A DNA stretch of 13,955 bases from Escherichia coli (GTDB taxonomy: Bacteria > Pseudomonadota > Gammaproteobacteria > Enterobacterales > Enterobacteriaceae). A program made the translations under genes and the position numbers. This document shows, piece after piece, positions 1 to 4,467 of this stretch. The notes beneath the pieces were generated by a model. That model did no database searches. It was not told the DNA's origin and saw only the letters and a list, made by a program, of their open reading frames with translations. Where the stretch lies: assembly GCF_003334765.1 (NCBI RefSeq), contig NZ_QOWT01000055.1; one strand, 5' to 3'. Position 1 is the first letter of the stretch. Every line of letters begins with the position of its first letter.

Positions 1-453
1 CACCGGGGACATCAGCAGGTGCTGTTTGTGGTGACGCAGGCCGACAAAACGGAGCCCTGCCATGAATGGGATATGGCAGGTATTCAGCCTTCTCCCGCAC
101 AGGAACAGAACATTCGTGAGAAAACAGATGCGGTATTCCGGCTGTTCCGGCCCGTACATCCGGTTGTGGCCGTATCGGCCCGCACCGGCTGGGAACTGGA
201 TACGCTGGTCAGTGCGCTCATGACAGCACTTCCCGACCATGCCGCCAGTCCCCTGATGACCCGCCTGCAGGACGAGCTGCGCACGGAGTCTGTCCGGTCT
301 CAGGCCCGTGAACAGTTTACCGGTGCGGTGGACCGGATATTTGACACGGCGGAGAGCGTCTGCATTGCCTCTGTTGCACGCACGGTTCTGCGCGCCGTCC
401 GTGACTCGGTGGTCTCTGTTGCCCGCGCGGTATGGAACTGGATTTTCTTCTGA
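1..453 (+). CDS. GTPase of the YeeP/YfjP/YkfA family (3' portion; 5' end upstream of window)
   Basis: Frame is open from base 1 (HRGHQQVLFVVTQADK...) to TGA at 451-453. Tail resembles from memory the C-terminal region of CP4-prophage GTP-binding proteins, and it sits directly upstream of a DUF932-type gene as yfjP does before yfjQ. Confidence 0.6.
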   Translation, partial: HRGHQQVLFVVTQADKTEPCHEWDMAGIQPSPAQEQNIREKTDAVFRLFRPVHPVVAVSARTGWELDTLVSALMTALPDHAASPLMTRLQDELRTESVRSQAREQFTGAVDRIFDTAESVCIASVARTVLRAVRDSVVSVARAVWNWIFF

Positions 454-540: not shown

Positions 541-569
541 TTGCGTTGTGTTTCTCAAGTTAATAGAAT
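541..569 (+). promoter_or_regulatory. Putative sigma70 promoter (-35 TTGCGT 541-546, 17-bp spacer, -10 TAGAAT 564-569)
   Basis: Hexamers and spacing read directly from the sequence; predicted transcript start around 576-578, about 95 nt upstream of the ATG at 671. Confidence 0.4.
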
Positions 570-572
570 ACA

Positions 573-613
573 TCGATCGTTACTATCATATCGATCGTTA
601 TAAACGATCGTTT
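573..613 (+). promoter_or_regulatory. Three GATC (Dam) sites inside a thrice-repeated CGATCGTT motif, at and just downstream of the predicted transcript start
   Basis: GATC at 575-578, 593-596 and 606-609, each within CGATCG; motif copies TCGATCGTTA (573-582), TCGATCGTTA (591-600), ACGATCGTTT (604-613). Confidence 0.55.
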
Positions 614-670
614 GTAGTAAATGACCTCCTCCGTGGTTGTCATGAAAATGCGTCTTAGGAAGGTTAAATA

Positions 671-3067
671 ATGCACGAAAAGAACATCGCCCTGCTTTGT
701 GATGAAGCCGACCGACTTTTGCAACTGAACATTAATCTGCTCCGGCAAATGGTTGAGGAGCCAGATGTGTTATCTGACAGTAAGAACGAAAACAGACTGC
801 TTTTTGATAAACAGAAAGCACTGAAAAGAATTGAGGAGCTGGAGGGCGAACAAATCAAAACCGCCCGCAGGGAGATGGTGCTGGCTGTTGTCGGCACGAT
901 GAAAGCAGGCAAATCAACCACCATCAATGCCATTGTGGGGCAGGAAATTCTGCCTAACCGTAACCGCCCCATGACCTCTGTACCGACGCTCATCCGCCAC
1001 GTTCCCGGAAAAACTGAGCCGGTTCTCCATCTGGAACATATTCAGCCTGTCCGCAATTTATTAATCACACTGCAGGAAAAACTCGCCACCCCGGCAGGAC
1101 AGCAGGTCGCACAGACCCTGCAGCAAACCGGGGATACCCGCGAACTGCTGGATATTCTGACGGATGATGGCTGGCTCAAAAATGAATACCACGGGGAGGA
1201 GGAAATCTTTACCGGACTGGCATCGTTAAACGATCTGGTTCGTCTTGCTGCGGCAATGGGGACTGAATTTCCTTTTGATGAATACGCAGAAGTGCAGAAA
1301 CTGCCGGTGATCGACGTGGAATTCAGCCATCTGGTGGGGATGGATGCATGCCAGGGAACACTCACACTGCTGGATACCCCCGGCCCTAATGAGGCCGGAC
1401 AACCGCAGATGGAAGTGATGATGCGGGATCAACTGCAGAAAGCCTCTGCGGTTCTGGCTGTGATGGATTACACCCAGATGAACTCAAAAGCGGATGAAGA
1501 CGTCCGTAAAGAGCTTAATGCCATTGCTGACGTATCAGCCGGCCGCCTGTTTGTACTGGTCAATAAATTTGATGAGAAAGACCGCAATGGCGATGGGGCA
1601 GATGCCGTACGCCAGAAAGTTCCGGCAATGCTGAACAGCGATGTGCTGCCCGCCTCCCGCGTTTATCCCGGATCCTCACGCCAGGCATACCTGGCTAACC
1701 GTGCGCTTCATGAGTTACGGAAAAACGGAACCCTTCCTGTTGATGAAGCCTGGGTCGATGATTTTATCAGAGGTGCCTTCGGTTGCATGAAAAAAGAATA
1801 CGTCTGTAAAGACAGTGAACTGGCAACTGAAGGGGCGACAGACCTGTGGGAAGGCTCACTTATCGATCAACTGATAACGGAAGTCATACAGAGCTCACAT
1901 TCCAGAGCTGCGGCACTGGCGGTTGACTCTGCCGCCGCAAAACTGATGCAGAATGCAGAAAATATCAGTGAATACCTGTTGTTACGCCATCAGGGGCTAC
2001 AGCAAAGCATTCAGTCACTGCAGTCGCATATCACCAGCCTGCTTGCGGATATCCGGGAAATCGCGGACTGTCAGGAGCAGATGACCACTGATGTCAGAAT
2101 GGCCATGGAGGAGATCGATACTAAAACCCGGGAATTACTGACGGGGGTCTGCACCTCACTGGAAGAGGAGCTGAATGACTATTTCAGAAGCGGTAAACGC
2201 AAAGAACAGCAAATGCTGGAGGAAGAAGACGCAGAACAACGAAGGTCTCAGTCCGGATTATGGGGGAAAATTTCTCAATGGTCCGGTATCAACAACCAGG
2301 GCCGGGAGGATTACAGGAAACGAGATTTTGCCCCGGACAGCCCCGAAATAAAATTCAGTGATCGCAGGGAAGCCCTTGAACTGATGACGCAAATCGAATC
2401 GACCGTGACCAGCCTGCACCGTGAGGCTGAAGCACAGTTCCGGCCTGAGCTGGAGAAAATCGTCAGCGGGATTGAAACAGGTTTTCGTGGCACGGCCCTG
2501 TACGCCACAGAAAACATTGCCGGTCGCATCAATGCCCGCCTGGAGGATGAGGGCTTTACCGTAAAAATCAGTTTTCCGGCAGTCAGCCAGTTACAGACCC
2601 GGCTCGCGGTAAAAATAAATCTGAGTGCGCTTATGGAGGAAAGAACGGAGACCGTCACCCGTCGCCGTCGGCAGAGTGGCGTATGGGGAACCGTTTGTCG
2701 ATGGTTTGGCACCAGTGACCTGGGCTGGGAAAACTATGACGAGGATGTGAGTCGCAGCGTGATCAATATCAACAAGGTCAGAGAGGAAGTTATGTCACTG
2801 ACCCGGGCATATTTCGGGGAGCTGCAGGCATCCATTGAGCAGGATATTAACCAGCCCGTCCGCCAGGAAATCGATGCCTTTTTCTGCGCATTCAGGGAGA
2901 AAGTTGAACAACTGCGTAACACGCTGATTCAGAGCTCTGAGGATCATAAACGCGATCAGCAGGCGCAGGAACGACTTACCGGGCGACTTCAGGCATTAAA
3001 TGAAAGGGTTCCTGAGCTCATTACTGACAGTAAGGCGCTGAGGGAAGAGCTGGAGACAATGCTGTGA
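671..3067 (+). CDS. Dynamin-like large GTPase, CrfC/YjdA-like paralog (798 aa)
   Basis: RBS AGGAAGG about 8 nt before ATG 671. P-loop GTMKAGKST encoded at 893-919, DTPG at 1373-1384, NKFD at 1562-1573, followed by a ~500-aa largely helical region. Collinear from memory with CrfC (…GTMKAGKSTTINAIVG…LPNRNRPMT…LTLLDTPGPNEAGQP…VLVNKFD…). Confidence 0.85.
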   Translation: MHEKNIALLCDEADRLLQLNINLLRQMVEEPDVLSDSKNENRLLFDKQKALKRIEELEGEQIKTARREMVLAVVGTMKAGKSTTINAIVGQEILPNRNRPMTSVPTLIRHVPGKTEPVLHLEHIQPVRNLLITLQEKLATPAGQQVAQTLQQTGDTRELLDILTDDGWLKNEYHGEEEIFTGLASLNDLVRLAAAMGTEFPFDEYAEVQKLPVIDVEFSHLVGMDACQGTLTLLDTPGPNEAGQPQMEVMMRDQLQKASAVLAVMDYTQMNSKADEDVRKELNAIADVSAGRLFVLVNKFDEKDRNGDGADAVRQKVPAMLNSDVLPASRVYPGSSRQAYLANRALHELRKNGTLPVDEAWVDDFIRGAFGCMKKEYVCKDSELATEGATDLWEGSLIDQLITEVIQSSHSRAAALAVDSAAAKLMQNAENISEYLLLRHQGLQQSIQSLQSHITSLLADIREIADCQEQMTTDVRMAMEEIDTKTRELLTGVCTSLEEELNDYFRSGKRKEQQMLEEEDAEQRRSQSGLWGKISQWSGINNQGREDYRKRDFAPDSPEIKFSDRREALELMTQIESTVTSLHREAEAQFRPELEKIVSGIETGFRGTALYATENIAGRINARLEDEGFTVKISFPAVSQLQTRLAVKINLSALMEERTETVTRRRRQSGVWGTVCRWFGTSDLGWENYDEDVSRSVININKVREEVMSLTRAYFGELQASIEQDINQPVRQEIDAFFCAFREKVEQLRNTLIQSSEDHKRDQQAQERLTGRLQALNERVPELITDSKALREELETML

Positions 3068-4467
3068 CTTCACCATTTATTCAACAAATTGCTGATAACC
3101 GGGTATGTCAGGTACTCACCTGTCTTCCTGAAAAATTTGTGGTTGATTTCGCAAACGGAATCGATGTTGCACAGGAGCATATCCGCACGGCCGGAGAGCG
3201 CACGTTCTTCCGGCGTTTAAAAGAGGGGCTGACCGGCGAAGGCGCTGCACGGCAGAATGCCATCAATGCGTCGCTTGCACAGGGCGTTGAGGCGTCCCTG
3301 CGCTGGCTGACGGAGATGACAACGTCACTTGCCACCACAAACTACGCGATTACCCAGGTAAACGACAGGGTCAGTTCACTGGTCAGTGATACAGCCAGGC
3401 TGGCGCATTATTCCGCAGATACGCGGGAGCAGTTACTCACCCTGGCCGATCAGGTTCACCATAAACTGAATCATCTTGAAGAAAAACTCCACCGTGTTGA
3501 CCAGGTTCAGCGGGCGCAGTTACATCTTGAGCAGATATTCTCATGGTGGAGCGCCGGGCGATATGCGTCATTTTCCCCTGCCGGACGTTGTTATGTGGCA
3601 CTTGAAGAGCTTCGCTGGGGCGCGTTTGGTGATGTGATACGTCAGGGCGAAACAGGCCAGGTTAACCAGCTACTGGATATTCTCAGACATAAAGCATTAA
3701 CGCAGATGGCACAGGAGAGTGGCGGTAGTGCAACCGTGCGTCTGAACACTCTGGACTGGCTTGGTGGTCAGGGCCGGGAGCAGGCAGATAACGAGTGGCA
3801 TGACGCGATTAACTGGCTGGGAGACTGGTGCAGTGAAGAGCAGCATCCGGTGACCCGTGTGCGCGACCCGGGCCGCCGGGGATACACAAAACACATGCTG
3901 CGTCTGCGGCGGGCCGGAGAGATAAACGGAGAACATGTCCCTGAAATTATTCTGCTCAACTCTCATGACGGTACCTCCAGCTACCAGATGCTGCCGGGTT
4001 ACTTCAGGTTCGTCTGCCAGAACGGGTGCGTCTGTGGCCAGTCTCTGGGGGAAGTGCGTGTTCCACACCGGGGAAATGTAGTGGAGAAAGTTATCGAAGG
4101 GGCTTACGAGGTGGTGGGCGTGTTTGACCGGATAGAGGAGAAGCGTGATGCCATGCAGTCGCTGGTCCTGCCGCCACCGGCACGCCAGGCGCTGGCACAG
4201 GCGGCACTGACTTACCGTTATGGTGACGAACATCAGCCCGTCACCACCGCCGACATTCTGACGCCGCGACGCCGGGAGGATTACGGTAAGGACCTGTGGA
4301 GCGCATATCAGACCATCCAGGAGAATATGCTGAAAGGCGGGATTTCCGGTCGCAGTGCAAAAGGAAAACGTATCCATACCCGGGCCATTCACAGCATTGA
4401 TACCGACATTAAGCTCAATCGCGCATTGTGGGTGATGGCAGAAACGATGCTGGAGAGCCTGCGCTGA
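3064..4467 (+). CDS. Partner protein, apparently chimeric: N-terminal ~260 aa of unplaced helical domain fused to a DUF932/UPF0380 (YfjQ/YafZ-like) C-terminal ~200 aa
   Basis: GTG start at 3064 overlaps the upstream TGA (GTGA, 3064-3067). C-terminal segment (…TRVRDPGRRGYTKHMLRLRRAGEI…EIILLNSHDGTSSYQMLPGYFRFVCQNG…KLNRALWVMAETMLESLR) matches my memory of YfjQ-family proteins minus their first ~70 residues. Confidence 0.7.
   Translation: MTSPFIQQIADNRVCQVLTCLPEKFVVDFANGIDVAQEHIRTAGERTFFRRLKEGLTGEGAARQNAINASLAQGVEASLRWLTEMTTSLATTNYAITQVNDRVSSLVSDTARLAHYSADTREQLLTLADQVHHKLNHLEEKLHRVDQVQRAQLHLEQIFSWWSAGRYASFSPAGRCYVALEELRWGAFGDVIRQGETGQVNQLLDILRHKALTQMAQESGGSATVRLNTLDWLGGQGREQADNEWHDAINWLGDWCSEEQHPVTRVRDPGRRGYTKHMLRLRRAGEINGEHVPEIILLNSHDGTSSYQMLPGYFRFVCQNGCVCGQSLGEVRVPHRGNVVEKVIEGAYEVVGVFDRIEEKRDAMQSLVLPPPARQALAQAALTYRYGDEHQPVTTADILTPRRREDYGKDLWSAYQTIQENMLKGGISGRSAKGKRIHTRAIHSIDTDIKLNRALWVMAETMLESLR

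Follow-up and report, generated by a model that had tools for sequence, protein, structure and literature searches.

A putative Dam/OxyR phase-variation switch, paralogous to that of agn43, in front of a dynamin-family operon of Escherichia coli

The window analysed in this study, a stretch of 13,955 nucleotides of Escherichia coli DNA (contig NZ_QOWT01000055.1), represents a CP4-44-like island adjoining yeeX(tmaR)-yeeA-sbmC-dacD-sbcB. Its genes are ordered as follows: a yeeP-like GTPase gene, a 217-bp intergenic region, a dynamin-family gene, an open reading frame of 467 amino acids, an antirestriction gene, yeeS, yeeT, cbeA, cbtA and yeeW. The corresponding chromosomal slot of K-12, beside yeeX/yeeA/sbmC/dacD, is occupied by yeeP-[isrC]-flu, and the 3' end of the yeeP-like gene in the window is about 97% identical to K-12 yeeP. 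The original prediction had placed agn43 (flu) at this position in K-12, which is borne out by the gene order yeeP-isrC-flu. The genes and the leader on either side of the region of interest are:

19-453, plus strand: 3' part of a yeeP-like GTPase-family gene, from the list of open reading frames; annotated as 'GTPase family protein' in relatives.
613-670, plus strand: dynamin-specific 5' leader, delimited by alignments.
671-3067, plus strand: dynamin-family GTPase, a CrfC/YjdA(RdcA) paralogue and the first gene of the operon; 'dynamin family protein' in RefSeq.
3064-4467, plus strand: in-frame fusion open reading frame, made of an RdcB-like N-terminal part and the C-terminal part of a DUF932 protein, as recognised by BLASTN against an annotated relative (L002).

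The dynamin-family protein scores 556 bits against NCBIfam NF007368, which is under the 1146-bit cutoff of that family. In full-length relatives the 217-bp region is followed by genes for a dynamin-family protein, an RdcB-family protein and a patatin-like phospholipase, and usually by two hypothetical genes. The fusion open reading frame in the window results from a deletion of 2,854 bp with its junction at 3852/3853, by which the patatin-like phospholipase gene and the two hypothetical genes are gone, so that the operon is truncated here. None of the ten best-matching complete genomes carries this deletion, and each of them matches the window in at least two pieces. A known defence system was considered for the operon and rejected, as PADLOC, queried with the dynamin, the GTPase fragment, the fusion protein and, from a complete relative, the RdcB-like and patatin proteins and the two hypothetical ones, returned marginal matches only (a phospholipase effector at 1e-4 and LeoBC at 8.6e-5, the latter without a stretch that passed).

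Within the dynamin-specific leader, CCTCCTCC (625-632) pairs in the predicted fold with the Shine-Dalgarno sequence AGGAAGG (657-663), to which it is complementary. This modelled pairing could mask the ribosome-binding site; the fold as a whole is not significantly more stable than those of shuffled sequences (z = -1.7). A scan of the window at the Rfam gathering thresholds yielded nothing, including IS102/IsrC (RF00124), for which the K-12 leader scores 252.6 bits.

The intergenic region between the GTPase and dynamin genes contains the elements on which this study centres:

541-546, plus strand: -35 hexamer TTGCGT, read in the sequence and invariant in 46 dynamin-type copies.
564-569, plus strand: -10 hexamer TAGAAT, inside the invariant TAATAGAAT.
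572-608: predicted OxyR tetramer site with half-sites at 572-586 (ATCGATCGTTACTAT) and 594-608 (ATCGTTATAAACGAT), found by its match to the consensus.
575, plus strand: predicted transcription start, the G of GATC-I, placed by homology with K-12.
592-610, plus strand: perfect 8-bp inverted repeat CGATCGTT-ATA-AACGATCG comprising GATC-II and GATC-III, found by a scan for terminator-like sites and by RNA folding.

The order in the window is TTGCGT-17-TAGAAT-ACATC-GATC, with a spacer of 17 bp between the hexamers (547-563) and the -10 hexamer located 5 nt upstream of GATC-I. Both hexamers and their spacing, as originally claimed, are thus confirmed at 541-569. The same holds for the claim of three GATC sites 18 and 13 bp apart in a repeated motif: the sites start at 575 (GATC-I), 593 (GATC-II) and 606 (GATC-III), and each lies inside one copy of the octamer CGATCGTT, which occurs exactly three times in the window (574, 592 and 605). 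The next GATC after the cluster is 626 bp away, and none is present in the window upstream of the -35 hexamer.

GATC is a rare word in this window, with 23 sites observed versus 56.7 expected from shuffled sequences, or about 40% of the expectation; such scarcity is typical of mobile elements. Between positions 3452 and 7415, a distance of nearly 4 kb, the word is absent altogether, which is striking beside the GATC triplet. The probability that three of 23 randomly placed GATC sites fall within 31 bp is approximately 0.026, and this value would rise to 0.32 if the window had 57 sites, so that the clustering by itself is modest evidence. It is the threefold identical octamer, together with the homology to agn43, that makes the cluster non-random.

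A simple promoter scan of the window did not list the TTGCGT/TAGAAT pair, because it matches the consensus at 8 of 12 positions. However, the K-12 agn43 promoter, TTGTCC-17-TAGAAT, which is used experimentally, is no better by this count. With regard to the transcription start, both the annotated 5' end of IsrC in K-12 (L001, 1818) and the Rfam match to IS102 (1816) coincide with the G of GATC-I, to which I take the agn43 start to map. This G is located 11 nt after the start of TAGAAT, and the geometry in the window is identical; by homology, transcription of the dynamin operon would start at G575. The inverted repeat at 592-610 would then form a hairpin at approximately +18 to +36 of the transcript, probably as a side effect of the dyad symmetry within the OxyR half-site.

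Comparison of the window with the yeeP-flu spacer of K-12 shows a near-identical 3' end of yeeP, after which the similarity collapses and then returns in a single block, CTCAAGTTAATAGAATACATCGATCGTTA-CTATCATATCGATCGTTATAAACGATCG in the window and CTCAA--TAATAGAATAAAACGATCAATATCTATTTTATCGATCGTTTATATCGATCG in K-12. The same block precedes another agn43 allele, the cah genes of EDL933 and TR01 and a Citrobacter gene for a protein of 154 amino acids, and in every case a yeeP-like GTPase gene is located 5' of it. The core of the block (560-612) is 74-83% identical to the corresponding sequences of K-12 flu/agn43, the other agn43 allele, EHEC cah and two Citrobacter loci, whereas the flanks are only 25-45% identical to the same loci. 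In a seven-way alignment 38 columns are invariant, nearly all of them within TAATAGAAT..A.CGATC..TA..TATCGATCGTT..A.CGATCG.T. The -10 hexamer, its distance to GATC-I and all three GATC sites are conserved across the aligned locus types, and TAGAAT is invariant in all seven of these as well as in all 46 dynamin-type copies described below.

Alignment with the agn43 (flu) regulatory region, which the original prediction had named as a check, hence finds a homologous core in which the -10 hexamer and the GATC sites are conserved, and the sequence leaves little doubt that this stretch is homologous to the agn43 switch. The further suggestion, that it is the agn43-type region itself, is not borne out as it stands: 41 of 54 core positions (about 76%) are identical to K-12 agn43, the distance from GATC-I to GATC-II is 1 bp shorter, and the leader is unrelated. 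The alignments support the view that 541-612 represents a diverged paralogue of the agn43 region, with intact elements and a new cargo.

In order to locate OxyR sites, every position of the window was compared on both strands with the consensus ATAGnTnnnAnCTAT-N7-ATAGnTnnnAnCTAT, which amounts to 27,838 positions. The stretch 572-608 matches at 16 of 20 positions and is the unique best, the runner-up reaching 14. GATC-I (575-578) and GATC-II (593-596) lie entirely within it, and of GATC-III (606-609) it takes in all but the last base; this overlap of an OxyR-consensus site with all three GATC sites agrees with the resemblance to an OxyR-controlled region that had been noticed at the outset. 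A second candidate at 563-599 (13/20) overlaps the first, and the window holds one full site only.

The corresponding matches in other copies are 14/20 for K-12 agn43, 13 for cah and the agn43 alleles, and 14 for Citrobacter. The higher score of the dynamin-type copy is due to one base fewer between GATC-I and GATC-II, which are 18 bp apart here versus 19 bp in all other copies compared. This shorter spacing sets ATCG (572-575) exactly 11 bp before CTAT (583-586), as in the consensus. As the missing base restores the consensus spacing, the distance of 18 bp is no argument against OxyR binding; the better-matching predicted site might even bias the switch strongly toward OFF.

At agn43, OxyR represses transcription when bound to the unmethylated GATC region, Dam methylation blocks OxyR, and the competition between the two after replication leads to heritable states (PMC13337833, PMC4872104, PMC2909390, PMC3764049). 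I consider it quite probable that 541-612 is a functional paralogue of this epigenetic phase-variation switch, placed before the dynamin-like operon, and, as far as the sequence tells, that operon would probably be phase-varied by it. From the homology I infer the following course of events. Sigma-70 RNA polymerase would use TTGCGT/TAGAAT and start at or near G575, and, with the three GATC sites unmethylated, an OxyR tetramer would occupy 572-608, spanning the start site. Bound OxyR would repress transcription and shield the GATC sites from Dam, giving a heritable OFF state. If Dam were to methylate these sites first after replication, OxyR would be excluded and the operon transcribed, giving a heritable ON state.

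Of 5,426 complete E. coli genomes, 1,986 contain the 217-bp intergenic region (454-670), among them ST131, O157, O145 and O103 strains; it carries no annotation among the records listed and is flanked throughout by a yeeP-like GTPase gene on one side and a dynamin/RdcB-like/patatin operon on the other. All arrangements of the switch that were seen have a yeeP-like GTPase gene immediately 5' of it. A literature search found neither a paper that connects the dynamin operon with Dam, OxyR or phase variation nor an experiment or methylome data on its locus, and papers on dam in ST131, O111 and UPEC contain nothing on the dynamin-operon locus. The putative switch is widespread, unannotated and apparently unreported. 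A scan of species-representative genomes detected the exact pattern in three contigs only. One of these, a contig of 1.5 kb labelled as MAG Collinsella sp. (L007), contains a GTPase-switch region of the E. coli cah/agn43 type and is almost certainly a binning contaminant.

To assess constraint, metagenome copies were collected with a leader probe, CCTCCTCCGTGGTTGTCATG (625-644), that does not select on the switch. The probe gave 42 loci, 41 of which have the full 260-bp stretch, and these, the window and four complete-genome sequences together make a set of 46 sequences representing 25 haplotypes. Variable positions are found at 2 of 36 predicted functional positions versus 40 of 161 other intergenic positions in the 46 copies, and as the test counts columns in related sequences, its significance is modest (Fisher p = 0.012). 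Every one of the 46 copies retains GATC-I and GATC-II, and 44 retain GATC-III. No indels were seen in the 46 dynamin-linked copies, and the 18/13 spacing is accordingly fixed among them. Within the predicted OxyR site of the dynamin-type copies eight columns vary, six of which are at N positions of the consensus.

GATC-III has been lost twice independently, through G606A in strain 8178 (L055) and through G606T in a metagenome copy (L037), the latter turning CGAT into CTAT of the OxyR consensus. The patatin gene of strain 8178 carries, in addition, a frameshift according to its annotation. Strain NCTC9699 (L005, 3493-3540) carries a natural deletion of 18 bp between direct repeats ATCGATCGTTA, equivalent to 572-589 of the window. 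This deletion removes GATC-I and the first OxyR half-site, and the best OxyR score falls to 12/20; judged by its sequence, it is a candidate for a locked-ON allele of the dynamin operon.

A hint on expression comes from a transcriptome study of strain MP1 published in 2026, which states that the regulation of such dynamins is undescribed (PMC12922286). There, a cluster of five genes, SID94_19700-19720, was the most strongly up-regulated cluster in a lysogen of phage Kapi1 compared with the cured strain, in all media, and the change did not track the lytic-lysogenic decision; two colonies per strain were used (PMC12922286). I find that this locus comprises the dynamin, RdcB and patatin genes and two further open reading frames, behind the switch described here with all its elements intact. 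MP1 in fact carries two near-identical switch-operons, one in island 8 (L053, 8356-8572; about 4,067,355-4,067,571 of NZ_CP139039) and one in PAI-aspV (L058, 6782-6998), both with intact switches, and the authors marked the apparent up-regulation of the second copy as influenced by multi-mapping (PMC12922286).

A strong change at one of two near-identical promoters is what is expected from a cis-acting epigenetic state. The difference between the MP1 lineages would, on this circumstantial ground, fit a clonal ON/OFF state, and the 'up-regulation by prophage Kapi1' may reflect such a phase-variation state and not regulation by the phage. Alternatively, a phage-encoded regulator, a mutation or some other factor could be behind the difference. 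A similar difficulty, 'did I pick the right colony', is on record for agn43 (PMC3764049).

The features in which the dynamin-type copy departs from the proven switches, namely an OxyR match of 16/20 versus 14/20 and a GATC spacing of 18 versus 19 bp, would also suit a homologue that still binds OxyR but does not switch, i.e. a promoter that is always repressed or responds to OxyR in a graded manner, with no heritable bistability. I regard this as unlikely, as a plain repressor site needs no GATC sites, and yet they are kept almost throughout the 46 copies. Moreover, the G606T variant is nearer to the OxyR consensus but rare (1/46), and in MP1 strong expression of the operon was confined to one of the two lineages.

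Less probable still is that the CGATCGTT repeats serve as the operator of an island-encoded regulator, or that the 592-610 hairpin acts as an RNA attenuator in the leader. The switch is always accompanied by a yeeP-like GTPase gene, the perfect 8-bp inverted repeat with the TTTGT that follows it was flagged as terminator-like, and the predicted leader fold includes the hairpin. However, the same repeats in K-12 agn43 are, according to the literature, an experimentally established Dam/OxyR site; in addition, the tail of the hairpin is poor in T, the z of the fold is only -1.7, and conservation reaches GATC-I and the -10 hexamer, both of which are outside the hairpin. That the stretch is a decaying, functionless relic of an agn43 promoter left by gene replacement is very improbable, for although the island is mosaic and decaying (the 2.85-kb deletion inside the operon of this window, relatives with frameshifted GTPase or patatin genes, the loss of GATC-I through the 18-bp deletion in NCTC9699), the -35 and -10 hexamers and the GATC sites are conserved while neighbouring intergenic positions vary, the element is conserved across loci with unalignable flanks, including those of Citrobacter, and no other promoter is recognisable immediately in front of the operon.

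To my knowledge, only a few phase-variable loci under Dam and OxyR are known, i.e. agn43, gtr and opvAB. If the stretch at 541-612 works as a Dam/OxyR switch, a widespread accessory operon without an assigned function would be expressed in a subpopulation only, which would account for its being the top 'regulated' cluster between isogenic strains, and bulk transcriptomics of the locus would depend on the colony that was picked. It would also mean that the operon could be locked ON by deletion of oxyR or by mutations in the GATC and OxyR sites, which would offer a handle on its function. The dynamin/patatin operon is suspected to be a membrane-remodelling or anti-phage module; the anti-phage role is a conjecture.

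A more far-reaching reading, which I put forward tentatively and with more doubt than confidence, is that the yeeP-like GTPase gene and the Dam/OxyR switch together make up a portable cassette for phase variation, carried by integrative islands of the CP4 type. If so, recombination would place the cassette before interchangeable cargo: Ag43, Cah followed by the dynamin operon, the dynamin/RdcB-like/patatin operon on its own, or the small secreted protein of Citrobacter. The dynamin/patatin operon, found in about 37% of E. coli, would then be an epigenetic bet-hedging trait, and some published 'regulation', such as that by Kapi1 in MP1, would be a colony-picking artefact of phase variation.

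Outside E. coli, Citrobacter braakii (L009, 5108-5155) and C. amalonaticus (L008, 931-978) have, after a yeeP-like GTPase gene, the same -10 hexamer and a core of three GATC sites spaced 19 and 13 bp apart. The cargo there is a protein of 154 amino acids with a signal peptide, so that the switch travels with different cargo in another genus. An IrmA homologue was considered for this cargo and rejected, as neither a match among PDB sequences nor one in NCBIfam was found. A scan of IMG/VR revealed one agn43-type copy (L059, 769-816) with the proximal leader, followed by open reading frames without an NCBIfam match that stand in place of the IS102 terminator and agn43; it may represent yet another combination of switch and cargo, or else have arisen by deletion.

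Among the known systems, the Dam/Lrp switches of the pap type have two GATC boxes 102 bp apart and a PapI-like co-regulator (PMC2909390), whereas the GATC sites of the window are 18 and 13 bp apart. In the mom gene of phage Mu, repression by OxyR is relieved by methylation of clustered GATC sites (PMC2909390), as is proposed here, although no sequence homology with mom would be expected; whether mom expression phase-varies is not established. The gtr and opvAB loci of Salmonella share, at the level of sequence, the placement of GATC sites in OxyR half-sites, at which Dam and OxyR compete for heritable ON and OFF states (PMC2909390, PMC4856963). However, upstream of their promoters they have three or four half-sites with two pairs of GATC sites, and OxyR, which can take up alternative positions there, is both activator and repressor (PMC2909390). 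This architecture is absent from the window, in which one full predicted site extends across the start and OxyR would only repress, as at agn43.

The cah gene of EHEC O157:H7 (EDL933) is preceded by the same TTGCGT, TAGAAT and three GATC sites, and a TTGCGT 17 bp from TAGAAT is also present in the agn43 and cah alleles compared. In contrast to cah, the window has no autotransporter gene, and its switch abuts the dynamin gene. EDL933 (L004, 3501-6760) shows the order GTPase, switch, cah and dynamin-family gene, and the 110-bp spacer between the latter two has no terminator-like or promoter-like site, so that both may be co-transcribed from the switch; the dynamin operon of EDL933 may already be under this kind of control. 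An origin of the arrangement in the window by simple deletion of cah/agn43 from a switch-cah-dynamin ancestor was rejected, as the cah-dynamin spacer and the leader in the window are homologous only near the ribosome-binding site.

Compared with K-12 agn43, the cargo in the window is a dynamin/RdcB-like/patatin operon and not an autotransporter of the Ag43 family, the spacing of GATC-I and GATC-II is 18 and not 19 bp, and the OxyR match is 16 versus 14 of 20. The agn43 and cah leaders contain a strong IS102/IsrC terminator hairpin, which is lacking in the window leader; the latter, of about 96 nt, is unrelated to that of agn43 beyond approximately 20 bp past GATC-III. In UPEC, the agn43 switch also drives a longer operon, agn43-yeeR-irmA (PMC4807369). 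Nevertheless, the slot after yeeP, the TAGAAT hexamer 5 nt from GATC-I, the three GATC sites, the 13-bp spacing of GATC-II and GATC-III and, as predicted from the sequence, a single OxyR site overlapping the transcription start are features that the window and K-12 agn43 have in common.
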